From NCBI GenBank assembly GCA_964455085.1, contig CAYVYJ010000003.1:7364-71363 (forward strand): DNA of 64,000 nt, in the 5' to 3' direction. The notes below the pieces were generated by a model. The model saw only the letters and a list, made by a program, of their open reading frames with translations, had not been told where the DNA came from and did no database searches. The position numbers were made by a program, and so were the translations under genes. Below, one piece after another: positions 8,224-63,989 of this stretch; positions within the stretch are counted from its first letter, which is position 1, and the number at the start of each line of letters is the position of its first letter. This DNA comes from an uncultured Planctomycetia bacterium. Its GTDB lineage: Bacteria; Omnitrophota; Gorgyraeia; Duberdicusellales; 4484-171.

Positions 8224-10962
8224 ATGAATTATAAGGATAGTTTAAATTTACCGCGAACTACTTTTCCGATGAAGGCAAATCTGCCCCTTCTTGAGCCGAA
8301 GACTATTGCCAGATGGGACAACTTGAATATTTACCAGCGGCTGCGAGAAGAGAATAGGGGTAAGAAAAAATTTGTGCTTCATGACGGGCCGCCTTACGCT
8401 AACGGTAAAATCCATATTGGTCACGCTTTGAATAAGCTGCTTAAAGATATTGTTATAAAGTATAAAATCCTCAGCGGATACGATTGCCCTTATATTATTG
8501 GTTGGGATTGCCATGGTTTGCCGGTTGAACACCAGCTATTTAAGGAATTAGGTTTAAGCAAACACGATGTTGAAGTAGGAGCCTTTAGAAAAAAAGCCCG
8601 AAACTATGCTTTAAAGTTCGTTAAACTGCAAAGCCAAGACTTTAAGCACCTGGGAATATTTTCTGATCCTGAACCTTACCTTACCTTAGCTGCAAGCTAC
8701 GAACAAGCAGTAATGAGACTTTTAGGGGATTTAGTGGCTGATGGCTACGTTTATCGCGGTCGTAAACCGGTTAATTGGTGCCAATCTTGTGAAACAGCCT
8801 TAGCTGAGGCAGAGGTAGAATATCTGGATAAGGAGTCGGACTCGATTTATCTTCTTTTTATACTTGATGACGGTAAAAGAGTTTTTACTCACGAGGAAAT
8901 TTCCCAAATTGGCTTCTTGGTTTGGACTACCACACCTTGGACTCTAATCTCTAACGTTGCAGTGGCTGTGCATCCAAAATTAGAGTATTGTTTAGCCCAG
9001 CTTAAGGAGCAAAAGATTGTTTTCGCTAAAAATTTGCTACCCTTACTGGAAAAAAAGTTTAAAACTAAATTTAAACTATTGAAAACATTCGCCGGTAAGG
9101 ATCTTGAAGGACTAAAGCTTAAGCACCCGTTTATTAAACGAGAATCGCCGATAGTCTTGGCTGATTTCATCTCTCGAGAAGAGGGCAGCGGCTGTGTACA
9201 TATTGCCCCTGGCCACGGAGCAGAAGATTTTTCCCTAACTCATAAATACGATCTTGATATTATTATGCCCCTAGATGAGAAAGGCCGATTCCAGGAACCC
9301 GAGGAGTTTAAGGACAAAAACGTGGGAGAAGCTAATATCGCAGTAATAAAAAAACTAAAAAACAATCAGTCGTTAATTCTTCATGAGACAATAAACCATT
9401 CTTACCCGCATTGTTGGCGTTGCAAGGAACCAATAGTTTTCCGGGCTACCTTTCAATGGTTTTTGAATGTTGACCATAAGAAATTACGGGTCAAGTCGCT
9501 TAAGGAAACAGAGAAAGTTAGATGGATTCCTTCCGCCGGCAAAGAACGAATGAGAGGAATGTTAGCTACCCGACCGGATTGGTGCCTTTCCCGTCAACGA
9601 CTCTGGGGTGTACCGATTCCGGCAGTGAGATGCAATGATTGCCAGAAGGTATATTTGACTAAAGAAATTATTGATAAGGCTGCTGAAATCTTCAGCCAGA
9701 CTGGTTCTGATTCTTGGTTCAGTCTGGACTTGGATAAATTTCTTCCTGCGAAGTTTAACTGCACCTGCGGCAGTAAAAGACTCCTAAAGGAATTTGATAT
9801 CCTTGATGTTTGGTTTGAGTCCGGTGCAAGTTTCTTGGCTGTAGTAAAGAATAACCCTGAGCTTAAATTTCCGGCAGATTTATACTTAGAAGGTAGTGAT
9901 CAGCACCGAGGCTGGTTTCAGGTCTCGCTTATACCTTCGGTGGCCAAGGAAAAATGCGCACCTTTTAAAACAGTGCTAACCCATGGCTTTGTGGTTGATG
10001 CTTCAGGAAAAAAAATGTCAAAATCCCAGGGAAATGTGATTGCCCCTCAGGAGATTTCCAGGAAATACGGAGCGGAGATCTTACGTCTCTGGGCAGCTTA
10101 CGCTGATTACAGCGAAGATGTCAAAATTTCCCAAGAAATAATTAAACAGTTGGCAGATATGTATCGGAAGATGCGTAATACCATCCGGTTTATTTTGGCC
10201 AATATATCTGATTTTGAGTTAAAAAATTGCCGATTAGCTCATAACCATTTATTAGAAGTTGATAAGTTCATGCTGGCTAAAGCCTTGCGTTTTAATCAAG
10301 AAGTCATATCTTACTATGAAACCTTTAGTTTTTACAAAGTCTGCCAAAAGATTTTTAATTTTTGCAACCTTGACTTGAGCTCTTTTTATCTTGACATTTT
10401 AAAAGACAGACTATATACTTTTTCTCGATATTCAGCTGCTCGTCAGAGTGCCCAATTTGTTCTTTACCATATCTTGAATATTTTACTTAAGCTGATTGCA
10501 CCGATTTTATCCTTTACTGCCGAGGAAGCTTATCTTGCCTGGGATAAGTTAGAGGAAAGGGAAGTTTCGATTTTCCTTTCTTCCTTAAAGGTTAATTATC
10601 CAAAGACTTGGGACAGTGAAGAACTTCTTAACCGCTGGGAATCTATTCTTAGCTTACGTAACCAGGTTCTCAAGGAAATTGAAACCAAAAGAGTCAGCGG
10701 TCTGATTGGAAGTTCCCTTGAAGCATGCGTTCTTATAAAGTGTCGGGGCAAAGATTACCCTTTCTATAAGGAGTATCGTGATGCTTTTGCAGAAATCTTC
10801 ATAGTCTCTTCGGTCACAATCGAGGAAGGAGATTTTGCAATCAAGATATCTAAAGCTGGTGGTAAAAAGTGTCTACGCTGTTGGAATTGGAGCGATAGTG
10901 TGGGGAGAAGTTCAAAACATTCTAACCTATGCAGTAAGTGCCAAGAGGCTTTAAAAGCATAA
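8224..10962 (+). CDS. ileS: Isoleucine--tRNA ligase
   Basis: HIGH motif (PYANGKIHIGHALN), KMSKS motif (KMSKSQGN), C-terminal Zn-finger CLRCWNW...CSKC. Confidence 0.95.
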   Translation: MNYKDSLNLPRTTFPMKANLPLLEPKTIARWDNLNIYQRLREENRGKKKFVLHDGPPYANGKIHIGHALNKLLKDIVIKYKILSGYDCPYIIGWDCHGLPVEHQLFKELGLSKHDVEVGAFRKKARNYALKFVKLQSQDFKHLGIFSDPEPYLTLAASYEQAVMRLLGDLVADGYVYRGRKPVNWCQSCETALAEAEVEYLDKESDSIYLLFILDDGKRVFTHEEISQIGFLVWTTTPWTLISNVAVAVHPKLEYCLAQLKEQKIVFAKNLLPLLEKKFKTKFKLLKTFAGKDLEGLKLKHPFIKRESPIVLADFISREEGSGCVHIAPGHGAEDFSLTHKYDLDIIMPLDEKGRFQEPEEFKDKNVGEANIAVIKKLKNNQSLILHETINHSYPHCWRCKEPIVFRATFQWFLNVDHKKLRVKSLKETEKVRWIPSAGKERMRGMLATRPDWCLSRQRLWGVPIPAVRCNDCQKVYLTKEIIDKAAEIFSQTGSDSWFSLDLDKFLPAKFNCTCGSKRLLKEFDILDVWFESGASFLAVVKNNPELKFPADLYLEGSDQHRGWFQVSLIPSVAKEKCAPFKTVLTHGFVVDASGKKMSKSQGNVIAPQEISRKYGAEILRLWAAYADYSEDVKISQEIIKQLADMYRKMRNTIRFILANISDFELKNCRLAHNHLLEVDKFMLAKALRFNQEVISYYETFSFYKVCQKIFNFCNLDLSSFYLDILKDRLYTFSRYSAARQSAQFVLYHILNILLKLIAPILSFTAEEAYLAWDKLEEREVSIFLSSLKVNYPKTWDSEELLNRWESILSLRNQVLKEIETKRVSGLIGSSLEACVLIKCRGKDYPFYKEYRDAFAEIFIVSSVTIEEGDFAIKISKAGGKKCLRCWNWSDSVGRSSKHSNLCSKCQEALKA

Positions 10963-49504: not shown

Positions 49505-50722
49505 TTAACTGGTTTCCCGAATTTCTGTGGGGAGTCCGATCCTATTCAGTAATTCAATAAAGGGATCAGGATCTAGCTCCTCAACATTAACCATAGCTTT
49601 CCTATCCCAGATACCCTTAGCTACCAGTATGGCTGCGGCAACCGGCGGAACACCAGCAGTATAGCAGATAGCTTGAGATTCTACTTCCCTATAACATGCA
49701 GCATGGTCACAGTTATTGTAAATAAAAATTTCTTTATCTTTACCGTCTTTGCTGCCGCGAATTAAGTTTCCGATACAGGTTTTCCCGCTATAGCCAGGTG
49801 CTAAAGAAAGAGGGTCAGGCAAAACAGCCTTTAGAACCTTAAGCGGTACCACCTCAACTCCCTCGGCAGTTGTCACCGGCTTAACCGAAGTCAATCCCAG
49901 TTTAGTAAGGACCGTAAAAATATTTATATAGTGGTCGCTAAAACCCATCCAGAACCGGATGCTGTTGGCATCGATATTCTTGGATAAGGAGTGAATTTCA
50001 TCGTGACCACTTAAATAGACTGTCTGTTCGCCGACTACCGGAAAATCATAAATTCTCTTTATTGAATGGATTTTGTTGGCTACCCATTTTCGATTAATCC
50101 AAGACCAGGCTTTTATAAATTCGCGGAAATTTATTTCCGGATCAAAGTTAGTTGCGAAATATTTACCGTGTTCTCCGGCATTAACGTCCATTATGTCAAT
50201 TGTATCAATAGTATCAAAATGATGTTTAACAGCAAGCGCAGAGTAGGCATTTACAACTCCGGGGTCAAACCCTACGCCAAGAATAACGGTAATCCCTTTT
50301 TCTTGGCAGATGTCCTTACGTTTCCATTCATAGTTTGCATACCAGGGGGGATCCTCACAAGGCTTATCCGGTTCCTCATGGACTGCGGTATCCATGTAGG
50401 CGACACCAGCCTGGATACAAGCCTCAAGCAGTGATTTGTTTACGTAGGCAGTAGCGAGATTAATTACGATCTGGGAGTTAGTTTCCTTTATCAGTTTTAC
50501 TGTAGCCGGGATATCGTAGACATCTATCTGGCGCGAGTAAAGTTTTTTAGTTTTATCCTTTAAGCTACTCCTTCGTTTAATGCTTTCGATGATCGCATCA
50601 CACTTATGCTGCTTTCTTGATGCAATACAGATATCACCTAAGAGATCATTGTTTTGTGCGCACTTATGCCCTGCCACATGAGCAACCCCACCAGCACCGA
50701 TAATCAACACATTTTTTTTCAT
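49505..50722 (-). CDS. Carboxy(nor)spermidine dehydrogenase (saccharopine dehydrogenase family)
   Basis: N-terminal NVLIIGAGGVAHVAGHKCAQ Rossmann region and ~400 aa length. Confidence 0.65.
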   Translation of the reverse strand: MKKNVLIIGAGGVAHVAGHKCAQNNDLLGDICIASRKQHKCDAIIESIKRRSSLKDKTKKLYSRQIDVYDIPATVKLIKETNSQIVINLATAYVNKSLLEACIQAGVAYMDTAVHEEPDKPCEDPPWYANYEWKRKDICQEKGITVILGVGFDPGVVNAYSALAVKHHFDTIDTIDIMDVNAGEHGKYFATNFDPEINFREFIKAWSWINRKWVANKIHSIKRIYDFPVVGEQTVYLSGHDEIHSLSKNIDANSIRFWMGFSDHYINIFTVLTKLGLTSVKPVTTAEGVEVVPLKVLKAVLPDPLSLAPGYSGKTCIGNLIRGSKDGKDKEIFIYNNCDHAACYREVESQAICYTAGVPPVAAAILVAKGIWDRKAMVNVEELDPDPFIELLNRIGLPTEIRETS

Positions 50723-50740
50723 TTTAACCTGCCTCCGAAG

Positions 50741-51844
50741 TTAGGATAAACTGTTTTGAAAATCTTTATACCCAAAACGGCGGACTACCTCCAAAGACCT
50801 ATCCAGCCTTTTTACTACAATTGAAGGCATTTTCAAGCCGTTAAACCAATTTTTTTTAACCATTGTATAACCGGCGGCATCAGCAATACGGATCACTTTA
50901 CCCACTTTTAGCCGGGATTTGAATCGGTAAGTACCGAAGATGTCTCCGGCCAAACAAGACCGCCCGGCAATCATATATTTAAACCGGCCCTGACCGGAAG
51001 TTTTTATCTTGGCACTCTGGCCATAAACTAACAAGTCTAACATGTGGGCTTCGGTTGAAGAATCAACTATGGCAATATTAATTTCATTATCAACGATATC
51101 TAATACTTTAGTCACCAGTTCAGCCGAGTCAATAATCGTAGCTTCTCCCGGTTCCAGATAAACCTGAACCCCAAATCGACTTTGAAACTCTTTTAGCAAT
51201 TTCCAAAATTTTTCGATTGGATAACCTTTTTTGGTAAAATAAATCCCACCGCCAAGGCTTACCCAGTTCAAAGTCTTTAACAAATCTCCGTAGTCGCGGC
51301 TAATTTTATTCAAATTCATGGCAAAATTTTTAAAATTATCGTTTTCACAGTTAAAATGGAACATCACTCCTTTAATTAAAGGTGCTACCTTAAGCAGCAA
51401 TCTTTTATCAATAATACCCAGTCTTGAGAACTTCCTTGCCGGGTCAGCTAAATCAAAGTGCGAGAAACTAACTTGGGGGTTTACTCTTAATCCTATATCC
51501 AGTGAACTGACCTGACCGTAAAACATCTTCAATTGTGATATCGAATTAAAAATTATTTTATCAGCGTATGGTTTGACTTTGTTTATCTCATTCTTCGAGA
51601 AAGCTACACTGTAGGCATGGATTTCTTTGCCGAATTTTTCTTTTCCCAAACGGGCCTCATACAAAGAACTACTGGTTGTGCCATCCAGATATTTACTGAT
51701 TAGACCGAAAACCGACCAGGTGGAAAAACACTTCAGGGCTAACAACGATTTTACCCCGGATTGTTCCCGGATGTACTTTATTATTTTTAGATTTCTTAAT
51801 AATTTACTTTCCTGAATTAAATAGTAGGGTGTTGGTAAAATCAT
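50741..51844 (-). CDS. nspC: Carboxy(nor)spermidine decarboxylase (NspC-like, PLP fold III)
   Basis: N-terminal PYYLIQESKLLRNL NspC pattern, ~370 aa; tandem with the dehydrogenase. Confidence 0.7.
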   Translation of the reverse strand: MILPTPYYLIQESKLLRNLKIIKYIREQSGVKSLLALKCFSTWSVFGLISKYLDGTTSSSLYEARLGKEKFGKEIHAYSVAFSKNEINKVKPYADKIIFNSISQLKMFYGQVSSLDIGLRVNPQVSFSHFDLADPARKFSRLGIIDKRLLLKVAPLIKGVMFHFNCENDNFKNFAMNLNKISRDYGDLLKTLNWVSLGGGIYFTKKGYPIEKFWKLLKEFQSRFGVQVYLEPGEATIIDSAELVTKVLDIVDNEINIAIVDSSTEAHMLDLLVYGQSAKIKTSGQGRFKYMIAGRSCLAGDIFGTYRFKSRLKVGKVIRIADAAGYTMVKKNWFNGLKMPSIVVKRLDRSLEVVRRFGYKDFQNSLS

Positions 51845-52096: not shown

Positions 52097-53350
52097 ATGG
52101 TTTTAAAATACATTAAGATTCTGACTCGACGGAACTTTTTCCTCCTTTGGTTTGGCCAGATTATCTCCCAATTCGGAGACCGGCTCACCCAGATAGCCTT
52201 AGTCGGCTTAGTCTCCCAGATCTCCATGTCATCTTCACGTTTAGCCTTGGTAATGAGTATGGCCATAATCCCGGTGTTTATCGTTTCGCCTATCTCGGGG
52301 GTCTATATTGATCGCTGGAGCAAGCGAAAGACTATGTACATCAGTGACTTCTTAAGAGGGATTTTTATATTGCTGATCCCTTTCTTTTTCTTAAAGCTTA
52401 AATCATTTATCGCAATCTATGTCCTTATTTTTCTCTCCTTTAGCGCTGGAAGGTTTTTTATCCCGGCTAAAATGGCCTTTATTCCTAAAGTCTCTAAAAA
52501 AGAAGATATTTTCCTGGCTAATTCCCTGATTTCGATAACTGCTACCATTGCTGCGGTTATCGGCTTTGGCCTGGGAGGAATTATTGTGGAGAAGTGGGGT
52601 ATTAATGCTGCCTTTAGCCTCGATGCAACTACCTTTTTCATCTCTTGTTTAGCCGTGTTTTTTATCAGTACCAGGGAAAAAGGAGACTTTAAGGTACAAG
52701 ATATTTTATACCTGGGAAAGAATGTGGTTAGTGGGGTCAAGCAATCATTTATCTGGGAATTTCGGGAGGGAATAAAATATATCTTCAACTCCCACGAGAC
52801 AAAATATGCTTTTAAGATGTTCCTGTTTATTTTCTCCTATATTGGCGGATTATATGTTGTCTTTATTCGCTTTATTCAAAGGGTCTTATCTTCTCTGACT
52901 ACTGATTTAGGCTTTATTACTGTATCTTTAGGCCTGGGTATCTTTTTAGGCTCTTTAATTTACGGACGAATTGCCCATAAATTCTTGGTAAAAAAAGTTA
53001 TAAGTCTGTCTCTTTTTCTTACTTCACTTTATCTGATATTCTTTGTTCTAGTACTACGGGCTTACCCTCAAACCCTTTATGCCATTGGTTTGGCCTTTAT
53101 TCTGGGAATGATAACCTCTCCGGTATTTGTAGGAGTGAATGCTTTAATCCATAAGGAGAGCGATGAAAAAGTATTGGGAAGGATTTTCAGCGGATTAGAA
53201 TTCACCTCGCACTTAGGATTTTTGCTATCAATGTTTATCTGCTCAGCCTTGGCAGATTTCTTCAATCCCTTTACAATCATTATCTCACTTGGTATAATTG
53301 GCTTTTTCTTATCAACCATATCGCTATTTACCCATGATCAAAGTAACTGA
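52097..53350 (+). CDS. MFS transporter
   Basis: 12-TM pattern with MFS motif region (GVYIDRWSKRK). Confidence 0.7.
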   Translation: MVLKYIKILTRRNFFLLWFGQIISQFGDRLTQIALVGLVSQISMSSSRLALVMSMAIIPVFIVSPISGVYIDRWSKRKTMYISDFLRGIFILLIPFFFLKLKSFIAIYVLIFLSFSAGRFFIPAKMAFIPKVSKKEDIFLANSLISITATIAAVIGFGLGGIIVEKWGINAAFSLDATTFFISCLAVFFISTREKGDFKVQDILYLGKNVVSGVKQSFIWEFREGIKYIFNSHETKYAFKMFLFIFSYIGGLYVVFIRFIQRVLSSLTTDLGFITVSLGLGIFLGSLIYGRIAHKFLVKKVISLSLFLTSLYLIFFVLVLRAYPQTLYAIGLAFILGMITSPVFVGVNALIHKESDEKVLGRIFSGLEFTSHLGFLLSMFICSALADFFNPFTIIISLGIIGFFLSTISLFTHDQSN

Positions 53351-54620
53351 ATACAAAGAACCTCAACATAACTTGAAGAGTGAAAAGTTTTTCGCACCCA
53401 GCAAGCTCTATTTACCCTTGTCCCAACATACGGGAAGCCCCTCTTCACTTTGCGTACAGAAAAATGACCTGGTCTCAGAAGGTATGCTCCTGGCCAAAGA
53501 AGATGGATTCATCTCGACCCAGCTGCACGCACCCAGAAGCGGAAAAATAGTCGATATTACTAACTGGTATCACCCGATATTAAAACAGGCGCCAGCAATT
53601 GTGCTTAAGACCGATGATGAACTAAAAAAATATTCCCTTAGCCGGGATCCAGCAACCCTTGGGAACGATGAACTGTTGGCGATTATTAAAAATAGCGGCT
53701 TGGTTGGTATGGGAGGAGGTGCTTTTCCCACTCATGCCAAATTAGATTCCGCCAAAGAAATCGATACCCTGATAATCAATGGCTGTGAGTGTGAACCCTA
53801 TTTAGCCTGTGATTACCGCTTAATGATTGAGAATGCTACTGAGATATTTAAAGCTATTGGAATAATCTCGAAATTAGTTAATCCCAAGGAAGTAATTTTT
53901 GCAGTCGAGAAAAATAAACCCCAAGCAATAAAAAAACTAAACCTTCATATTAATACTAAGAATTTTGATTCTTCGCCGATAAAACTGTTTATTTTACCTA
54001 CTGCTTATCCCCAAGGAGAGGAGAAGTGGCTGATTCAGGCTACAACCGCTAAAAAAGTCGGGCCGGAAAAACTCCCGCTTGATGTCGGTTGTCTAGTCCT
54101 TAATGTTGCAACCTGCTTTGCGATCTACGAAGCAGTTTATCTTGATAAACCTCTAATTGAAAGACTGGTTAGTTTTTGCGGCGACGCTCTGAGGATTCCT
54201 AAGAATATCTGGGTTAAAATCGGAACTACTCTCCGGGAACTTTTTGAGGCAAAAGTTTTAGAATTTATAAAGGAACCTAAGCGGGTTATTTGCGGCGGGC
54301 CGATGATGGGAATTGCGCTTGATAGCTTAGATTATCCGATTTTAAAAGGGAGCGGTGGTTTTCTCTTTTTGAAGGAGGAGGAGCTTGAAGCAGGAGAGGA
54401 ACCCTGTATTCGTTGCAGCCGTTGTGTCGACGTCTGTCCAATGAATCTTCTACCGCTTGAGTATGTGAAAAGGGTGAAGAAAGATGAATTTGCTTCTTTA
54501 GCCGATTTTAATATTATTGATTGCACCGAGTGTGGTTGCTGCAGTTATGTTTGTCCAGGAAAAATACCGATTACTCACTATATAAAAACCGGGAAAAAAT
54601 ATGGTCTTAACAATAACTAA
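53334..54620 (+). CDS. rnfC: Rnf electron-transport complex subunit C
   Basis: GMGGGAFPTHAKL NADH/FMN-site motif; two CxxCxxCxxxCP ferredoxin motifs. Confidence 0.85.
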   Translation: MIKVTEYKEPQHNLKSEKFFAPSKLYLPLSQHTGSPSSLCVQKNDLVSEGMLLAKEDGFISTQLHAPRSGKIVDITNWYHPILKQAPAIVLKTDDELKKYSLSRDPATLGNDELLAIIKNSGLVGMGGGAFPTHAKLDSAKEIDTLIINGCECEPYLACDYRLMIENATEIFKAIGIISKLVNPKEVIFAVEKNKPQAIKKLNLHINTKNFDSSPIKLFILPTAYPQGEEKWLIQATTAKKVGPEKLPLDVGCLVLNVATCFAIYEAVYLDKPLIERLVSFCGDALRIPKNIWVKIGTTLRELFEAKVLEFIKEPKRVICGGPMMGIALDSLDYPILKGSGGFLFLKEEELEAGEEPCIRCSRCVDVCPMNLLPLEYVKRVKKDEFASLADFNIIDCTECGCCSYVCPGKIPITHYIKTGKKYGLNNN

Positions 54621-55539
54621 CCCTCCCCATTTAAAGTCAACTCTCAATACACCTTTCCTGATGCGGCAGGTTATAATTGCCTTATTGCCAGCTGTAGCTG
54701 CTTCACTATATTTCTTTGGAGCAAGGGCAGTGCTGCTGATTGCAAACTGCATACTGAGTGCAGTAATTACTGAAAAAATAATTTTAAGCTTACGAAAACG
54801 GCCCTCAGCAATCAGCGACTATAGCGCTGTTTTAACTGGTTTACTCCTGGCCCTTATTTTACCGCCTTCTATAGCCTGGTACGGGGCAACTCTTGGTTCA
54901 GCAGTAGCGATTATTATCGGCAAACATATCTTTGGCGGATTAGGGGCAAATATCTTTAATCCAGCCTTAATCGGCCGGGCCTTTCTTATGGCAGCTTACC
55001 CGGAGATGCTTACTACTTTTATAAAACCAAATTCAATCAATGCCCTAACCTCAGCTACACCCTTGGTTTTGAGGAAATTCAACCAAGTAATAACTCCCGA
55101 TTTAACGCTCTTTTTGGGGAAGGTTTCAGGAAGTTTGGGTGAGACCTCGGCAATTTGCTTAATTATCGGAGGCTTATACCTTTTAATCAGAAAAATTGCT
55201 GACTGGCGCATCCCCTTAAGTCTCCTCCTTACCACTACAATTATTTCCGGGGTGTTTTATTTAATTGATCCTGGATCGGGTTCGGTCTTCTTCCATCTCT
55301 TTGGCGGCGGACTTCTGCTCGGAGCCTTTTTTATGGCCGCTGACCCGGTAACCACGCCAACCACAAAAAAAGGCCGATACTTTTTTGGTCTTGGTTGCGG
55401 AATATTAATAATGGTAATACGATACTTTAGCGGTTTGCCGGAAGGCGTGATGTATGCAATCCTGTTTATGAATGCATTAACTCCTTTAATCAACCGCTAC
55501 ACAAAACCAAGGAGATTCGGGTATGCGAGAAGTAGTTAA
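54601..55539 (+). CDS. rnfD: Rnf complex subunit D
   Basis: NqrB/RnfD polytopic pattern with the FMN-attachment region (TGATVSS-like context). Confidence 0.85.
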   Translation: MVLTITNPPHLKSTLNTPFLMRQVIIALLPAVAASLYFFGARAVLLIANCILSAVITEKIILSLRKRPSAISDYSAVLTGLLLALILPPSIAWYGATLGSAVAIIIGKHIFGGLGANIFNPALIGRAFLMAAYPEMLTTFIKPNSINALTSATPLVLRKFNQVITPDLTLFLGKVSGSLGETSAICLIIGGLYLLIRKIADWRIPLSLLLTTTIISGVFYLIDPGSGSVFFHLFGGGLLLGAFFMAADPVTTPTTKKGRYFFGLGCGILIMVIRYFSGLPEGVMYAILFMNALTPLINRYTKPRRFGYARSS

Positions 55540-56089
55540 AATAACCTCGGTATTAACTACAGTTTGTCTGGTCTGTGCTTTTTTACTTTCCTTTGTCTGG
55601 GGGCTATCCCATAAAAAGATTGCTTTTAATGCTGAAAGAAGAGTGGAGGAAGCCTTGTCGATTCTAGCCCCCCAAGCAGCCGAAATAAGGGAGGCTCATA
55701 TCGACGAGGAGCTGATATACAAACTTTTTGATCAAAATGAAAGTCTAATCGCTTATGCTTTTATAGCTTCCGGCCAAGGCTATCAAGGAAAAATCAAAAT
55801 GCTGGTAGTAGCGGAGGCAAGCTTAAACCGTCTGGTGGGTATTGAAGTAGTAGAGTCTTTGGAAACTCCCGGATTAGGGGCAAAAATACAAGAGGATTTC
55901 TTTAAGCAACAATTTGCCAATTTAAGTTTAAAAGGCGAGATTGTCTGCCGAAAAGGTGTACTTGATGGGCCGGGGCAGATAAAAGCGATTACCGGGGCAA
56001 CTGTTTCTTCCCAGGCTGTAGTCAATATCTTGAACCAACGCCTTAAGCAAATACGGGAAGTAATTAAGGCCGAGAGGAAGTTAGAATGA
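55523..56089 (+). CDS. rnfG: Rnf complex subunit G (FMN-binding)
   Basis: N-terminal TM plus FMN_bind domain with the TGATVSS covalent-FMN motif. Confidence 0.8.
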   Translation: MREVVKITSVLTTVCLVCAFLLSFVWGLSHKKIAFNAERRVEEALSILAPQAAEIREAHIDEELIYKLFDQNESLIAYAFIASGQGYQGKIKMLVVAEASLNRLVGIEVVESLETPGLGAKIQEDFFKQQFANLSLKGEIVCRKGVLDGPGQIKAITGATVSSQAVVNILNQRLKQIREVIKAERKLE

Positions 56090-57606
56090 AACTCTTTGTT
56101 GAAACCAGCGCCTCAATGAAAAAAACAAAATTTATCGCCATAATCATAATCCTGTCGGCACTGCTTTATGCCAACTCCCTTAACGGTGATTTTGTTTCCG
56201 ATGATATTGGTTCTATTCGTGATAACCCCTCAATAGATAAATTTTCTGGTTTGAATTTAAGTGCAATCTTTAATTGGGTTGGCTATAAAATTTCCGGTCT
56301 CAACCCTTTTGCGCATCATTTAAGTAATCTTATCCTTCACGCAGCCTGTTCAGTCTTGGTCTTTTATATTCTTCTGGGTTTTTTCAGTCTCTGGCCTAGC
56401 TTCTTAGCCACACTTCTTTTTGTAGCTCACCCGGTACACACTGAAACTATTGCCTGGATTTCCGGAAAAGCCTACGCATTCTCAGCGCTTTTAATTTTTG
56501 CTTCTTTTCTTCTTTACCGCCGGGCTACCAGTCAAGATAAGCTAAAACCTTATGCCTATTTATTTTCGATTATCCTTTGTAACCCTTTTCATGCTTACTG
56601 GTATCTGGGAGTCTATCCGGCCATGATCATCCTTTATGATTTTACTTATCGCCGGGTAAAGAAAAACTGGCCCTACTGGATACCCTATATTGGATTAGTT
56701 ACAGTCTGGGTAATCAAGCGGATTATGGCGATTACTCAAAGAATTGATGTTTTAAGTTCGCCGACAATAATTGGCACCAATAACCTCATTTACAAATTAG
56801 CCTTTTCTTTCTTCTCGCACTTAAAATTACTACTTTGGCCCGGTCGATTAACTCTCTACCATGAACCAACTACCATTACCCAAGAATTACTTCTGGTTGA
56901 GATAATTGCTATTGGTGCAATTATTTGTTTTCTACCCTTTCTTTTTAAGCGGGCTAAGGAACTTTTCTTTGCTTTGGGAATATATGTTCTCTTTCTGGCT
57001 CCTACCTACAGTCCGATCTTAATCAGCTGGACTATTGCTGAGCGCTATCTCTATGTCCCCTCAGTGGGATTTTTTATCTTTATTGCTTTCATAATCGAAA
57101 ACTATTACCGACGGCCAAAGGCAAAAATCATCATTGCCATCCTAATGGTCTTGACTATCGGAACTTATTCAATAAGGACAATTATCCGAAACAACGACTG
57201 GAGCAGCCGAGCAAATCTCTGGCGGGCCACGGTTAGAGTCTCTCCCTTAAGCGCTAAGGCTCACAACAATATGGGCGATATTTATACCGTCGAAGGTGAT
57301 TTAGTGCGGGCTGCTGATGCCTTTAAATACGCAATAAAACTTAATCCTAACTACGCTGAAGCTTATCATAATCTTGGCACTACTTATGGCAAGCTGAACC
57401 AAATTAAGCTGGCAGCAAAATTTTACAAAAAAGCGCTATCTTTAGCGCCGTCACTCTATCAATCACATCAAAATCTCGGTGCGATTTATTTTAATCGGGG
57501 AGATTTCGGTCTGGCTAAAAAGCATCTGAGCCAAGCTTTAAAGTTTCTTCCCCAAGATTCGCCTAACCGAGCTGTGATTTTGAATGCTTTGGAAAGAATA
57601 CCTTAA
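56086..57606 (+). CDS. TMTC/DUF1736-like polytopic membrane protein with C-terminal TPR repeats (putative GT-C glycosyltransferase)
   Basis: HLSNLILHAACSVLVF and FVAHPVHTETIAWISG blocks typical of the DUF1736/TMTC family, DD motif in the first loop, 4-5 TPRs at the C-terminus; inserted between rnfG and rnfE. Confidence 0.55.
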   Translation: MKLFVETSASMKKTKFIAIIIILSALLYANSLNGDFVSDDIGSIRDNPSIDKFSGLNLSAIFNWVGYKISGLNPFAHHLSNLILHAACSVLVFYILLGFFSLWPSFLATLLFVAHPVHTETIAWISGKAYAFSALLIFASFLLYRRATSQDKLKPYAYLFSIILCNPFHAYWYLGVYPAMIILYDFTYRRVKKNWPYWIPYIGLVTVWVIKRIMAITQRIDVLSSPTIIGTNNLIYKLAFSFFSHLKLLLWPGRLTLYHEPTTITQELLLVEIIAIGAIICFLPFLFKRAKELFFALGIYVLFLAPTYSPILISWTIAERYLYVPSVGFFIFIAFIIENYYRRPKAKIIIAILMVLTIGTYSIRTIIRNNDWSSRANLWRATVRVSPLSAKAHNNMGDIYTVEGDLVRAADAFKYAIKLNPNYAEAYHNLGTTYGKLNQIKLAAKFYKKALSLAPSLYQSHQNLGAIYFNRGDFGLAKKHLSQALKFLPQDSPNRAVILNALERIP

Positions 57607-57624
57607 ACTTAGAATAAACTGTAG

Positions 57625-58200
57625 ATGAAAGATTTTATTAAAGGATTATGGATGGATCATCCGGTATTTCGCCAGCTCCTTGGCATGTGTCCAACTCTGG
57701 CCGTAACTACCTCGGCGATAAATGGACTCTCCATGGGCTTAGCTGTAATCTTTGTCTTATTCTTTTCATCATTAGTAGTTGCCTTGATTAAAAAAATAGT
57801 TCCGCACCAGGTACGGATTGCCGTCTACACTGTAATTATTGCTACTTTTGTTACCATTGTCGACTTATTCTTAAAAGCTCAGTTTCCCGAAATTAGCCGC
57901 AACCTGGGGCCTTACGTGCCTTTAATTGTGGTTAACTGCATTATCCTGGGTCGCTGCGAAGCTTTTGCCTCAAAAAGCAGTGTCTTAAACTCCTTAGGTG
58001 ATGCTTTAGGTATGGGAATCGGATTTAGCTGGGGGCTATTTATTCTGGGTTCGATTCGCGAGGTTTTAGGCGCCGGGAGTATCCTGGGAATAAAACTGAT
58101 GCCGGCAAATTATCCCCATTTAATTGTAATGATTCTTCCGGCCGGAGCATTTTTAGTCTTAGGCCTTTTAGTGGCACTAATGAATAAAATTGAAAGCTAA
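57625..58200 (+). CDS. rnfE: Rnf complex subunit E
   Basis: PVFRQLLGMCPTLAVTTS...LIVVNCIILGR RnfE/NqrD pattern. Confidence 0.85.
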   Translation: MKDFIKGLWMDHPVFRQLLGMCPTLAVTTSAINGLSMGLAVIFVLFFSSLVVALIKKIVPHQVRIAVYTVIIATFVTIVDLFLKAQFPEISRNLGPYVPLIVVNCIILGRCEAFASKSSVLNSLGDALGMGIGFSWGLFILGSIREVLGAGSILGIKLMPANYPHLIVMILPAGAFLVLGLLVALMNKIES

Positions 58201-58202
58201 AT

Positions 58203-58784
58203 ATGACTGATTTAATTTTAATATTTATCTCAACCCTTTTAATAAACAATCTTGTTTTATCCTATTTTTTAGGGATTTGTCCCTTTCTGGGAGTTTCCGG
58301 AAAAATCGAGTCGGCTTGTGGTATGGGTATGGCGGTTACTTTTGTAATGACCCTAGCCACCAGTATTAGCTGGTTAATCTACAACCTGATTTTAGTTAAA
58401 TTTGGCCTATTGTTCCTGGAATATGTGGTCTTCATCTTAGTTATTGCTTCCTTAGTTCAAATTGTGGAGATGTTCATCCGTAAGTACTCTAACCAGCTTT
58501 ACCAGGCCTTAGGAATATACCTTCCCTTGATTACCACTAATTGCGCAATCCTGGGTGCTGCCCTTTTTATGGTAACCAGAAATTATAACTTTCTGGAAGC
58601 AGTTGTTTTTGGTTTCTCCGGCGGCCTAGGATTTTCTCTGGTTTTGATGATTATGGCTGGAATCAGGGAAGAGGCAAGTTATGCTGATATTCCCGGTGTA
58701 TTTAAGGGAGCTTCTCTAACCTTAATTACTGCTGGTTTACTGGCACTTATATTTATGGGTTTTTCCGGTTTAATTGCCTCCTAA
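58203..58784 (+). CDS. rnfA: Rnf complex subunit A
   Basis: LGICPFLGVS...ITTNCAILG RnfA/NqrE pattern. Confidence 0.85.
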   Translation: MTDLILIFISTLLINNLVLSYFLGICPFLGVSGKIESACGMGMAVTFVMTLATSISWLIYNLILVKFGLLFLEYVVFILVIASLVQIVEMFIRKYSNQLYQALGIYLPLITTNCAILGAALFMVTRNYNFLEAVVFGFSGGLGFSLVLMIMAGIREEASYADIPGVFKGASLTLITAGLLALIFMGFSGLIAS

Positions 58785-59595
58785 AATGGAAAAAATTACA
58801 ATTGCTATCGTTGTTTTGGGAATAACTGGTTTCTTGTTTTCACTACTCCTGGCTCTCTTAAGCAAGAAGCTAAAAGTAGCTGAAAATCCTCAGACTGCAA
58901 AAATCCTGGATTTGCTTCCCGGTTTAAATTGCGGCGCCTGCGGTTTTAGCGGCTGTCGAGCCTATGCTCAAGCTGTAGCCGCAGAATGTAATGTCTTCTC
59001 TGGCTGCCTTCCAGCAGGAGCAGAAGTCAACAAGCAAATTGCCGAAATGTTGGGATTAATCGGCTGTGTCTCAGCAGATAAACCAGTAGTTATCTGCCAC
59101 TGCGCTGCCAAGGGGGGCGAGAAGAAGTCATCAGCAAACTACATCGGCCCCAATACCTGTAGGGCTGCTGAGATAACCGGAGGTCCAATTGATTGTATTT
59201 ATGGTTGTCTTGGTTTTGGTGATTGTGTAAAAGTCTGTCCAAGGGGAGCACTTACCTTGAAGGAGAAATCGATTGAAGTCAATATTAAAAAATGTAGCGG
59301 CTGTGGAAAGTGTCTGAATATCTGCCCCCGTAAACTCTTTGAAACTGTCCAGCTCACACCAGGTCTTGACCTCTATAATGTTGCCTGCAATAATAAAGAT
59401 CCTGCTTTAGCCGTAAAAAAAGTCTGTGGCCGGGGTTGTATTGGTTGCGGAATCTGTACCCGGGTAGAAGATTCGCCTTATTATTTAAAAAACAATCTCG
59501 CTCTGATCGACTATAGAAAAGCTGAGAAGCTTAAAAGTTTAGAAGCCGGAAAAATAAAGTGCCCGACAAAGTGTATTTTGAGCCAAAGCCGGTGA
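58774..59595 (+). CDS. rnfB: Rnf complex subunit B (polyferredoxin)
   Basis: N-terminal TM, CGACGFSGC motif and several CxxCxxCxxxCP clusters. Confidence 0.85.
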   Translation: MPPKMEKITIAIVVLGITGFLFSLLLALLSKKLKVAENPQTAKILDLLPGLNCGACGFSGCRAYAQAVAAECNVFSGCLPAGAEVNKQIAEMLGLIGCVSADKPVVICHCAAKGGEKKSSANYIGPNTCRAAEITGGPIDCIYGCLGFGDCVKVCPRGALTLKEKSIEVNIKKCSGCGKCLNICPRKLFETVQLTPGLDLYNVACNNKDPALAVKKVCGRGCIGCGICTRVEDSPYYLKNNLALIDYRKAEKLKSLEAGKIKCPTKCILSQSR

Positions 59596-59596
59596 T

Positions 59597-59989
59597 ATGC
59601 TTAAAGAGATTGTAACCATAACCGAAACCAAGGATGATAAAGTTAAGATAAAATTCATTAAAAAGGCAGCTTGCTCTTGCTGCAAACTTACCTCTCTGTG
59701 TGGTAAGGGCGAAGAGGAGCTAATGATAGACAATTGTGGTTTTAGTCTCAAGCCCGGTGATAAAATCGAAGTCGGTATTGAAGAAAAGCAAAACCTGCTG
59801 GCCAGTTTAATTGTCTTTCTCCTGCCGGGAGTGATTTTTCTGACCAGTTTACTTATCTTTAGACAACAGGGAGAATTGGTCAGTTTTTTTCTTGCTATCT
59901 TCGCACTTTGCGTCTATTATGGAGGTGCTAAGATGCTGCTTAAAAAAGAGCAGAAGAAGTTTAGTTTAAAAATCTTAGGTAAACTCTAA
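59597..59989 (+). CDS. RseC/MucC-family (SoxR-reducing-system) membrane protein
   Basis: N-terminal Cys cluster (CSCCKLTSLC) followed by two TM helices; immediately downstream of rnfB. Confidence 0.55.
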   Translation: MLKEIVTITETKDDKVKIKFIKKAACSCCKLTSLCGKGEEELMIDNCGFSLKPGDKIEVGIEEKQNLLASLIVFLLPGVIFLTSLLIFRQQGELVSFFLAIFALCVYYGGAKMLLKKEQKKFSLKILGKL

Positions 59990-59994
59990 AACCA

Positions 59995-60606
59995 ATGCCA
60001 AAACTAACCAATATTGCCGTATTAGCCTCAGGTAAAGGGACAAATTTTGCGGCTTTAGCCTTAGGAGTCAGGAGAAAAAAATTACCGGCTAAAATAAAAC
60101 TCTTAATTACCGACAAAAGAAATGCTTTAGCCAGAAAGAAAGCTAAAAATCTGGGTATAAAGGATATTTTCATCAACCCCAAAGAATTTAAGTCTCGATT
60201 GACCTATGAACGCCGGATAGTCAAACTATTGAAGCAGGAGAAAGTTGAGCTGGTTCTCTTAGCTGGATACATGCGAATTCTTTCACCCTTTTTTATAAAC
60301 TGTTTTAAACAAAAAATTCTCAATATTCATCCGGCACTCCTGCCGGCTTTCAGAGGCACCGATGCCATTGGCCGGGCATTTAGATATGGCTGCAAAATAA
60401 CCGGGGTAACAGTCCACTTTGTCGATAGTCAAGTTGATCAGGGGCCAGTAATTCTTCAAGAAGCAATTAAAATCACCCCGGGGATGAACCAAGAAAGACT
60501 GGAGGCAAAAATCCATTGTTTAGAACACAAACTCTACCCCCAAGCTTTAAAACTGATCCTTGATAAAAGAGTAAAAATAAGGAACAGAGATGTCAGGATT
60601 ATTTAA
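59995..60606 (+). CDS. purN: Phosphoribosylglycinamide formyltransferase
   Basis: IAVLASGKGTNF...NIHPALLPAFRG formyl-transferase motifs. Confidence 0.85.
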   Translation: MPKLTNIAVLASGKGTNFAALALGVRRKKLPAKIKLLITDKRNALARKKAKNLGIKDIFINPKEFKSRLTYERRIVKLLKQEKVELVLLAGYMRILSPFFINCFKQKILNIHPALLPAFRGTDAIGRAFRYGCKITGVTVHFVDSQVDQGPVILQEAIKITPGMNQERLEAKIHCLEHKLYPQALKLILDKRVKIRNRDVRII

Positions 60607-63137: not shown

Positions 63138-63989
63138 ATGAATACAGCTATCTTACTTATTTCATGTCCCGATAAAAAAGGTATTAACGCCGCCATTACT
63201 AACTTCGTCTACCAGAATAACGGTAACATTGAGCATGCCGATCAACACATTGACTCCCAATCCAACACTTTTTTTATGCGTATTGAATGGTCGCTGGAGG
63301 GTTTTAAGCTTAGTAAGGATGAGCTAAGCAAAAGTTTTCTTCCTCTGGCCAATAAATTTAATATGAACTGGGAGCTCTACTTCAGTAGCACTCCTACCAA
63401 TGTGGCAATTTTCGCCTCTTACACTACCCACTGCCTATATGATCTTCTGCTTAAATATAAACAAAACTACTTTAATTGTCAGATACCTTTGATTATTAGC
63501 AACTCTCACCAGGCCAAAGACATTGCCAGACGCTTTGGTATAAAGTTCGTTAAATTTCCCATAAACCCGCAAAATAAGCCGGCAGTGGAACAAAAGCAAA
63601 TCGCTCTGCTTAAGAAGGAAAAAGTTGATACCATTGTTTTAGCTCGCTATACTCAAATTTTGACTAGTCAATTTATTGTTGCCTTTCCTAACCGGATTAT
63701 CAACATTCATCACTCTTTTTTGCCAGCCTTCATCGGAAACAATCCTTATCAACAAGCTTATCGGCGGGGGGTAAAAATCATTGGTGCTACCAGCCACTAC
63801 GTTACTGAGCGGCTGGATGCCGGGCCGATTATCGAACAAGATACTACCCGGGTCAATCACCGCGACTCTTTAGCTGATTTAAAGCGTGAAGGTCAGGAAC
63901 TAGAAAGAACAGTGTTAAGCAAAGCTTTACGCTGGCATCTGGAGCGTAAAATACTGGTCTATAATAATAAAACTGTAGTCTTTGATTAA
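63138..63989 (+). CDS. purU: Formyltetrahydrofolate deformylase
   Basis: N-terminal ACT domain plus formyl-transferase core (HHSFLPAF, SHYVTERLDAGPII). Confidence 0.85.
   Translation: MNTAILLISCPDKKGINAAITNFVYQNNGNIEHADQHIDSQSNTFFMRIEWSLEGFKLSKDELSKSFLPLANKFNMNWELYFSSTPTNVAIFASYTTHCLYDLLLKYKQNYFNCQIPLIISNSHQAKDIARRFGIKFVKFPINPQNKPAVEQKQIALLKKEKVDTIVLARYTQILTSQFIVAFPNRIINIHHSFLPAFIGNNPYQQAYRRGVKIIGATSHYVTERLDAGPIIEQDTTRVNHRDSLADLKREGQELERTVLSKALRWHLERKILVYNNKTVVFD

Follow-up and report, generated by a model that had tools for sequence, protein, structure and literature searches.

The window, meaning the whole stretch of 64,000 nucleotides that was analysed, contains an rnf operon in the order rnfC-rnfD-rnfG-X-rnfE-rnfA-rnfB-rseC-like, where X denotes an inserted gene of 506 aa and every gene lies on the forward strand. 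The genes of the region and the features referred to below are:

52097..53350, forward strand: MFS transporter gene (Pfam MFS_1 and MFS_3), overlapping the rnfC start
53270..53298, forward strand: best sigma-70-like promoter match of the region, just 5' of rnfC, a consensus match only
53334..54620, forward strand: rnfC (TIGR01945, 457.6 bits, cutoff 246; RnfC_N, Complex1_51K and Fer4 domains)
54601..55539, forward strand: rnfD (PF03116, 364.8 bits; TIGR01946, 326 bits)
55523..56089, forward strand: rnfG (FMN_bind, 53.7 bits; TIGR01947, 100.8 bits, just below the cutoff of 102)
56086..57606, forward strand: X, with a GT-C-fold membrane domain and C-terminal TPRs
56086..57198, forward strand: membrane domain of X (aa 1-371), 11 TM helices, GT-C fold
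56200..56205, forward strand: codons of D39-D40 in FVSDD, first outside loop, corresponding to TMTC motif M1, the GT-C catalytic acidic pair
56428..56445, forward strand: codons of H115-E120, HPVHTE, at the boundary of TM3 and outside loop 2
57037..57054, forward strand: codons of A318-Y323, AERYLY, in outside loop 5, corresponding to TMTC motif M7, ERxxY
57202..57603, forward strand: TPR domain of X (aa 373-506), comprising three canonical TPRs and the helices that flank them, predicted periplasmic
57625..58200, forward strand: rnfE (TIGR01948, 226.4 bits, cutoff 213.4; PF02508)
58203..58784, forward strand: rnfA (TIGR01943, 255.8 bits, cutoff 229.3)
58786..59595, forward strand: rnfB (NF005503, 180.6 bits; TIGR01944, 71.5 bits, cutoff 68.7; FeS and Fer4 domains)
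59597..59989, forward strand: gene for an RseC/MucC-like small membrane protein (PF04246, 70.5 bits)

All six Rnf subunits are recognised by Pfam and NCBIfam, and C, D, E, A and B exceed their TIGR cutoffs. RnfG, the membrane-anchored periplasmic FMN-binding subunit, gives a clear FMN_bind match, and its motif for covalent FMN attachment (flavinylation), AITGATVSS, is kept in the window and throughout the relatives, whether or not they have X. For rnfC and rnfB the gene callers chose the ATG at 53334 and 58786; the open reading frames open at TTG 53298 and TTG 58774, respectively. The promoter match agrees with the consensus in 11 of 12 hexamer positions and has a TG extension. The MFS gene is context and not part of Rnf. 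It is found 5' of rnfC in related loci both with and without X, and the rseC-like gene 3' of rnfB is kept in both kinds of loci of the clade as well.

The contiguity of the rnf structural genes is broken by X, a non-Rnf gene of 1521 nt between rnfG and rnfE. The original prediction had described this gene order with tight or overlapping junctions, and both were found: the ATGA at 56086-56089 is common to the rnfG stop and the X start, a GAGG Shine-Dalgarno-like motif lies 8 nt 5' of this start, and the gap between the X stop and the ATG of rnfE is 18 nt. Homologues start near Met11 of X (56116). X itself might begin there, 30 nt further 3', which would leave the junction with rnfG tight all the same. 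A promoter and terminator scan around X gave no convincing candidate flanking the gene, and the GC content of X (0.39-0.42) is no different from that of its flanks. X may be co-transcribed with the rnf genes and translated off the polycistronic mRNA.

X had been described as a TPR-bearing, TMTC/DUF1736-like protein with a GT-C fold. Pfam TPR profiles indeed match residues 373-499, and structure prediction yields a confident fold whose helix map comprises 11 TM helices, i.e. the multi-helix membrane fold common to PMT, ALG and STT3 enzymes. The DUF1736 label applies to its remote relatives rather than to X itself. In the HMM search of 56086..57606 the membrane domain matched neither DUF1736 nor PMT_2 of Pfam even at E<=10, and PF08409 is not among the 25 commonest matched families in 26 members of the X subfamily, whereas three remote homologues (L056, L067 and L070, 26-27% identical) match TMTC_DUF1736 (PF08409) with 30.9-33.1 bits at a cutoff of 27. 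As these homologues lie above the cutoff, X is linked transitively to the TMTC family. Matches to PMT_2 (PF13231) in relatives stay below threshold (18.5-24.9 bits against a cutoff of 26.1), and P0005 has a precomputed weak match to this family.

The open reading frame of X is intact and has hundreds of full-length homologues, and its membrane domain retrieves 35,262 cluster representatives at E<=1e-3. Paralogues of the family often occur in tandem arrays, and the homologues P0011-P0015 and P0017 stand in unrelated gene contexts. Among the 80 best GTDB loci there is no case of a family member within an rnf operon. A stand-alone RnfD-family gene comes directly after one non-Rnf homologue (L009), and another homologue (L175) is located two genes 5' of an ApbE-family gene; neither kind of neighbour recurs in any other locus that was fetched.

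The distribution of charged residues in X, with 10 Lys and Arg among 36 inside positions compared to 8 among 121 outside positions, fits an N-in/TPR-out topology. D39 and D40, in the loop after TM1 that is predicted to be outside, are invariant in two sets of homologues (26 and 23 sequences, archaeal ones included). The homologue alignments also show H115, P116, E120, E319 and R320 to be invariant, while the conservation of Y323 is 90% or more. The DD pair of M1 is regarded as the GT-C catalytic acidic pair, and the Arg of ERxxY in M7 binds the lipid phosphate (PMC7801869). The X-family consensus LLFAVHPIHT is identical to residues 125-134 of human TMTC3 as quoted in the same paper. By the motif definitions given there, M2 to M5 are absent from X: the segment of M2 (SHKSYRP) is deleted and the first outside loop is approximately 22 residues shorter than in TMTCs, G-K-A-Y is found at M3 (RxD), CNPFHAYW at M4 (KE(T/Q)xxT) and LYHEP at M5 (DW), where the conserved YHE (H259, E260) takes the place of the DW. 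Distant homologues of X keep YRP, xD and KE. X is most likely a periplasm-facing, TMTC-like predicted glycosyltransferase. The missing motifs include the proposed metal- and phosphate-binding KE and DW, however, and the catalytic competence of X is therefore not assured.

To assess how unusual the insertion is we considered 68 rnfE-anchored metagenome loci, each with both rnfG and rnfE. The distance from rnfG to rnfE does not exceed 374 nt in 66 of them (median 35 nt), and the two loci with a 1.5-kb insert contain the same gene. An insertion at this junction is hence unusual, and a literature search found no description of the arrangement, in agreement with the original prediction. The insertion is not a peculiarity of one genome with pseudogene-like decay. 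X occupies the same rnfG/rnfE slot with tight junctions in the window, in L005/L091/L092, in L008/L172 and in L174. These represent four or more related lineages of Omnitrophota, among which the identity of X goes down to 47%. Its dN/dS is 0.134 at a dS of 0.55, on a par with 0.128 for rnfC and 0.121 for rnfG. X is a real and conserved gene under purifying selection, with no sign of decay.

The slot is not occupied throughout the group. Four relatives that are just as close (L089, L090, L093 and L094; RnfE 80-88% identical) have a clean junction, rnfE coming straight after rnfG and nothing being left of X between them. X is also missing in L095-L102 and in all more remote loci whose contig carries both rnfG and rnfE. 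In the Rnf tree L089 and L090 fall inside an X-bearing clade (95-100% bootstrap), a placement that might be confounded by recombination within the operon. X and Rnf do not co-occur consistently across related genomes. No informative alignment column in RnfD, RnfG, RnfE or RnfA distinguishes operons with X from those without it, no Ser/Thr-rich segment of RnfG is peculiar to the former, and the window contains no genes for donor synthesis. The close relatives manage without X, and X is therefore probably an accessory passenger rather than a new Rnf subunit. The original prediction had left open whether X is an assembly or glycosylation factor or a neutral insertion. From the genome comparisons, an accessory role that Rnf can do without seems the more likely.

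The explanation we favour, at a probability of roughly 55%, is that X is a bacterial TMTC-like GT-C enzyme, carried by the rnf operon as a passenger and kept for a function of its own outside the Rnf machine. The gene would have entered the rnfG/rnfE junction in the ancestor of a narrow Omnitrophota clade and been retained by purifying selection for this function. The conserved D39-D40, HPxHTE and ERxxY would be situated on the periplasmic side of the 11-helix inner-membrane domain. By analogy to PMT, TMTC, ArnT and TfpW, the enzyme would use a polyprenyl-phosphate-sugar as donor and pass the sugar on to an acceptor in the envelope or periplasm, and the short periplasmic TPR domain would most likely recruit a protein substrate. 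Rnf presumably works without X, and some lineages may have shed the gene cleanly or never acquired it. One must keep in mind that a single intra-operon slot held down to 47% identity, with junctions of the translational-coupling type, suggests more than a transient passenger. The absence of M2-M5 and of donor-synthesis genes from the window also speaks against the proposed enzyme.

The same slot and junctions could point to a dedicated Rnf factor, either a periplasm-facing glycosyltransferase or a TPR assembly chaperone, with RnfG as the most obvious target. The start of X overlaps the stop of the rnfG gene directly 5' of it, and the slot is kept under purifying selection in at least four lineages. 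A further hint arises from TfpW, whose architecture (11 TM, a DDX motif in loop 1, periplasmic TPR) is that of X and whose gene directly follows that of its substrate, pilA; X follows rnfG in a similar way and might by analogy act on this periplasm-exposed subunit. The RnfD-family gene adjoining the L009 homologue and the ApbE-family gene near that of L175 are Rnf-related neighbours of non-Rnf homologues and count against a mere passenger as well. We nevertheless consider a dedicated factor unlikely. Close relatives have intact rnf operons without X, neither a residue nor a segment of the Rnf subunits compared co-varies with it, no other fetched family member is situated within an rnf operon, the two suggestive neighbours are each unique to a single locus among those fetched, and our literature search found no paper that ties Rnf to glycosylation of its subunits. 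More doubtful still is the specific version in which X is an operon-encoded modifier in these ultra-small bacteria, acting by O-glycosylation or, through its TPRs, as a chaperone; its target would be the FMN domain that RnfG exposes to the periplasm, or else a loop of RnfD or RnfE on that side.

Even less credit is given to a non-catalytic GT-C relic whose TPRs form a periplasmic scaffold anchored in the membrane, or which binds lipid-linked sugars. X and its Omnitrophota/CPR subfamily have lost YRP (M2), the Asp of RxD (M3), KE (M4) and DW (M5), which distant homologues and TMTCs retain, and the membrane domain matches no Pfam catalytic-domain model. Against this, the DD pair, HPxHTE and the phosphate-binding Arg of ERxxY are invariant across very divergent homologues, and a reduced motif set throughout a large, selected subfamily is more typical of changed specificity than of inactivation. 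The YHE in place of DW is also similar to the HEH with which ArnT binds metal (PMC7801869). An artefact, be it a chimeric metagenome assembly or a mis-called reading frame within a normal rnf operon, has a negligible chance of being correct. The source is evidently a metagenome-assembled genome, and the mosaic dS values of related contigs testify to recombination or chimeric assembly around the X/rnfE boundary. The identical X protein in identical context is nevertheless present in nine independently assembled contigs, of which the four shown stem from four different sequencing runs, the arrangement recurs in divergent relatives from other studies, and X is an intact reading frame with a high-confidence fold and hundreds of full-length homologues.

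In anaerobes the Rnf complex is central to energy conservation, and few bacterial operons are as stereotyped as its operon of six genes. Because of this an internal, selected and translationally coupled seventh gene is unusual. If X acted on Rnf, the periplasmic face of the complex would prove to mature through a step not known before; if it modified Rnf, X would be the first known glycosyltransferase built into a respiratory ion-pump operon and would offer a tractable bacterial model of TMTC-type substrate recognition. In the more likely case that X does not act on Rnf, the locus marks out a large branch of the TMTC/PMT clan in bacteria and archaea, so far unannotated, to which current Pfam and NCBIfam models give no label but "TPR protein". 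In this case the near-identical operons with and without X also provide a natural presence/absence series for probing the role of such enzymes, and the locus shows that even highly conserved respiratory operons can take in, and later drop, passenger genes.

Among known systems, the eukaryotic protein O-mannosyltransferases TMTC1-4 (GT-C/PMT clan, PF08409) have, like X, 11 TM helices, a cytoplasmic N-terminus and non-cytoplasmic C-terminal TPRs, with the DD of M1 in the first outside loop and the ERxxY of M7 between TM9 and TM10. X differs in that only its remote bacterial homologues match PF08409, in having K-x-Y for RxD, no KE(T/Q)xxT and YHE for DW, and in the extent of its TPRs, as the C-terminal TPR regions of TMTCs extend over several hundred residues compared to approximately three TPRs in X. 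Furthermore, X is bacterial and encoded inside an rnf operon. ArnT, the modelling template for TMTCs, belongs to the wider set of GT-C enzymes. Solved structures of this fold have only 8-15% sequence identity to X, and a search of the PDB with a profile of its membrane domain gave no match at E<=10. The yeast and fungal Pmt1/2/4, ALG12 and STT3/AglB likewise have an acidic catalytic motif in their first outside loop. In PMTs the place of the TPRs is taken by a MIR domain, and STT3 and ALG enzymes act on different acceptors.

The GT-C pilin arabinofuranosyl/oligosaccharyl transferase TfpW of Pseudomonas aeruginosa, compared here by the architecture given in its paper, resembles X in its inner-membrane location, 11 predicted TM helices, N-in orientation, periplasmic C-terminal TPR and a gene position immediately 3' of a gene for a periplasm-exposed protein. 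Its essential DDX motif lies in periplasmic loop 1, as the DD of X lies in the first outside loop. TfpW modifies PilA, whose gene is directly 5' of tfpW (TfpW paper). With 646 aa TfpW is longer than X, and its gene is linked to pilA and to D-Araf biosynthesis genes, whereas X is linked to rnfG and rnfE and has neither donor-synthesis genes nor an adjacent pilin gene.

The operon of the window agrees with canonical rnfCDGEAB in its six subunits, their C-D-G-E-A-B order and normal family scores, with a conserved rseC-like gene 3' of rnfB, and differs by the non-Rnf gene inside, between rnfG and rnfE. Variants with rnfH (Rhodobacter), mmcA (Methanosarcina) or cytochrome or apbE genes (Desulfovibrio) have been described; these carry the additional genes at the operon ends.

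The rnf operon occupies positions 53298-59989 of the window and consists of eight open reading frames (ORFs) running in one direction with tight or overlapping junctions. The original prediction placed a gene for a 506-residue protein with a membrane domain and C-terminal TPRs (here X) between rnfG and rnfE, and this gene order is borne out by the ORFs and their Pfam and NCBIfam matches:

rnfC: TIGR01945, 457.6 bits
rnfD: TIGR01946, 326 bits
55523-56089, rnfG: FMN_bind match; TIGR01947, 100.8 bits (trusted cutoff 102)
56086-57606 (+), X (506 aa): TPR matches only (Pfam/NCBIfam)
rnfE: TIGR01948, 226.4 bits
rnfA: TIGR01943, 255.8 bits
rnfB: TIGR01944, 71.5 bits
rseC-like gene: RseC/MucC-family protein

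Among the NCBIfam models, RnfG is matched best by NF041840, which describes the methanogen type of RnfG (119.9 bits, cutoff 230). The stop of rnfG and the start of X overlap in the ATGA at 56086-56089, which a GAGG motif precedes by 8 nt, and the ATG of rnfE follows 18 nt after the end of X. The start of X is ambiguous (ATG at 56086 or at 56116); as the homologues align from Met11 (56116), the true start may be the latter, and the junction to rnfG is tight even so. Residues 1-8 are modelled with a pLDDT below 50. An identical X protein in identical context occurs on nine contigs from independent assemblies, and the four of them that were displayed stem from four sequencing runs, which effectively rules out an assembly artefact. 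The base composition does not shift across the insert. In a consensus scan the best promoter-like site lies just upstream of rnfC and no convincing site was found around X, a pattern which is compatible with a single rnf-X transcript but falls short of proof.

An MFS_3/MFS_1 transporter gene (52097-53350) overlaps the start of rnfC and is kept directly upstream of it across the Omnitrophota clade, a placement taken from the names of homologues, with or without X (including the relative loci L095, L097, L101 and L102); the rseC-like gene and purN are kept directly downstream of rnfB in the same clade. Further upstream, a divergently oriented pair (49505-51844, minus strand) of a saccharopine-dehydrogenase-like and an Orn/DAP/Arg-decarboxylase-like gene, presumably the carboxy(nor)spermidine dehydrogenase/decarboxylase polyamine pair, likewise precedes the MFS-rnf block in relatives. 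On the downstream side, two genes of the formyltransferase fold (59995-60606 and 63138-63989) follow closely on rnf and enclose two genes of the Band_7 family and one BatD-like gene; one is purN (TIGR00639, 217.6 bits), and the other, with ACT and Formyl_trans_N domains, may be read as purU-like. In one X-bearing lineage the rnf operon has a second passenger, an IS200/IS605-type Y1 transposase gene (PF01797) that separates rnfB from the rseC-like gene in L005 (7732-8589) and, at the corresponding place, in L092.

The comparative check of the G/E junction found X in the same slot in relatives: the rnf operons of L005, L006, L007, L091 and L092 carry a copy 61-63% identical to that of the window, and those of L008, L172 and L174 carry copies of 47%, 48% and 49% identity, every one with tight junctions. 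The arrangement is rare. Among the 80 JGI metagenome loci nearest by RnfE, 68 hold both rnfG and rnfE; their spacing is at most 374 nt in 66 of these (median 35 nt), and a 1.5-kb insert, the X ortholog, is present in L091 and L092 only. rnfG is directly followed by rnfE in L089, L090, L093 and L094 (RnfE 88%, 86%, 83% and 80% identical) and in L095-L102 (72-79%). The spacers in these operons are short, and neither that of L089 (33 nt) nor the AT-rich one of approximately 106 nt in L090 contains a remnant of X. Outside of rnf, six homologous proteins (P0011, P0012, P0013, P0014, P0015 and P0017) with 43-51% identity and similar scores are encoded in unrelated contexts. Of the 80 top-scoring GTDB species representatives, not one has X within an rnf operon, and many of them have tandem paralogue arrays. 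Such arrays hold two to four diverged members of the X family (23-29% identical to X; L031, L049, L051, L060, L063, L069, L085 and others) and their hosts are Omnitrophota, Planctomycetia, Terriglobia, Bacteroidota and Clostridia MAGs. The window itself contains neither X paralogues nor sugar-donor genes.

The neighbour-joining tree of concatenated RnfD, RnfG, RnfE and RnfA has the form (window with X, (L090 without X, (L089 without X, (L005, L091, L092, all with X)))), with bootstrap values of 96, 100, 95 and 100. As the operons lacking X are nested among those bearing it, either at least two clean losses took place or the insertion was spread by homologous recombination. In the tree of the X family the Rnf-embedded copies fall into one region, with weak support and two non-Rnf copies among them. 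For the estimation of selection we took the closer pair L005 and L091 (dS about 0.5), since dS between the window and L005 is saturated. The dN/dS is 0.134 for X, compared to 0.128 for rnfC, 0.121 for rnfG and 0.084 for rnfD, which marks X as a functional gene.

The synonymous divergence of this pair is a mosaic, with a dS of 0.37-0.55 in rnfC, rnfD, rnfG and X and of 0.04-0.11 in rnfE, rnfA and rnfB; L092 resembles L091 upstream of the X/rnfE junction and L005 downstream of it. The pattern suggests either homologous recombination that broke at the X/rnfE boundary or a chimeric strain assembly.

Three canonical TPRs are located at residues 373-499 of X. Residues 1-379 had no relevant match in Pfam (E<=10), and only TPR families were among the top 25 in a Pfam scan of 26 alignment members. 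Against PDB sequences the full-length profile retrieved TPR proteins only and the membrane domain alone nothing (E<=10). The AlphaFold2 model from 26 homologues is confident (pLDDT 85.6, pTM 0.86) and has 11 long membrane helices and, after them, eight of the TPR type; its Foldseek matches are limited to the TPR part. Of the 36 residues in loops placed on the inside, 10 are Lys or Arg, compared to 8 of the 121 in loops placed on the outside. In 23 divergent homologues, including archaeal ones, D39-D40 ("FVSDD"), H115-P116-E120 ("HPxHTE"), P252, L255 and E319-R320 ("AERYLY") are invariant. The catalytic type of the invariant residues speaks against X being a non-catalytic scaffold, the least likely of the functional readings.

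We favor, with a probability of roughly 0.55, a reading of X as a TMTC-like GT-C glycosyltransferase that faces the periplasm. The gene would have been captured into the rnfG/rnfE junction in the ancestor of a narrow Omnitrophota clade, would be expressed together with rnf and retained for a function of its own, and, being dispensable for Rnf, would have been shed repeatedly. That X could instead be a factor dedicated to the modification or assembly of Rnf appears improbable to us, if less so than the scaffold. Two loci outside any rnf operon relate to such a link. ApbE enzymes flavinylate RnfG, RnfD and NqrC, and in L175 (4016-5214) the genes after that of the X homologue P0017 encode a NIL+4Fe-4S protein and then a member of the ApbE family (PF27030). 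In L009, a complete Omnitrophota chromosome (CP070797.1), an X homologue of 45% identity is followed 69 nt downstream by a stand-alone RnfD/NqrB-family gene (9521-10618; 365 aa; PF03116, 63 bits), whose product has an extra C-terminal part of approximately 110 residues and whose next gene encodes desulfoferrodoxin. By tblastn against all fetched loci neither neighbour recurs; both contexts are thus single observations, and a recurrent link of the X clade to RnfD-like or ApbE genes was dropped. Within Rnf itself, operons with and without X are not distinguished by any alignment column of RnfD, RnfG, RnfE or RnfA, the flavinylation motif of RnfG is intact in both groups, and no Ser/Thr-rich segment of RnfG specific to X-bearing operons was found. 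The Omnitrophota genome papers note that the Rnf complex is conserved and mention no inserted gene, and a literature search on Rnf and glycosylation found nothing relevant. The arrangement within rnf is real and undescribed, and on the comparative evidence X is unlikely to be a new core component of Rnf.

The protein itself adds a new member to a known superfamily. TMTCs were defined by Eisenhaber et al (PMC7801869) as having 11 TM helices, their N-terminus in the cytoplasm and their TPRs in the lumen, with the motifs M1 (DD) and M2 (SHKSYRP) in the first outside loop (EL1), M3 (RxD) in EL2, M4 (KE(T/Q)xxT) in EL3, M5 (DW) in the DUF1736 loop, which joins TM7 to TM8, and M7 (ERxxY) between TM9 and TM10. 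X shares their architecture, M1 and M7, and "LLFAVHPIHT" of the X-family consensus is identical in every letter to the human TMTC3 segment quoted there. In contrast, X and the whole Omnitrophota/CPR subfamily are without the M2 segment because their EL1 is about 22 residues shorter; RxD is replaced by K/R-x-Y, KE is absent, and DW is replaced by "LYHEP". YRP, xD and KE are kept in more distant bacterial and archaeal homologues. Those of the Latescibacterota loci L056, L067 and L070 (identity to X 26-27%, tblastn E of about 1e-31 to 1e-33) reach the cutoff of Pfam TMTC_DUF1736 and come near that of PMT_2. Taken together, the architecture, M1 and M7, and these DUF1736 matches place X in the GT-C/PMT clan with a TMTC-like architecture, in a reduced and currently unmodelled branch. 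The original prediction of a DUF1736-like protein thus stands for architecture, M1 and M7, while by the Pfam criterion X lies outside the DUF1736 family. The branch is a large one: with the membrane domain of X alone as query, the cluster representatives found number 35,262 at E<=1e-3 and 6,606 at E<=1e-10. Public annotation of the branch nearly always reads "tetratricopeptide repeat protein", with an occasional JGI label "protein O-mannosyl-transferase".

A characterised GT-C of like architecture is TfpW of P. aeruginosa, which shares with X the 11 TM helices, a DDX/DD motif in periplasmic loop 1 (DDX being essential in TfpW) and a periplasmic TPR domain. The likeness extends to gene position, which makes TfpW a lead towards a functional link of X to Rnf: TfpW is encoded immediately after the gene of its substrate, pilA, and X after rnfG, the gene of the periplasm-exposed FMN subunit.
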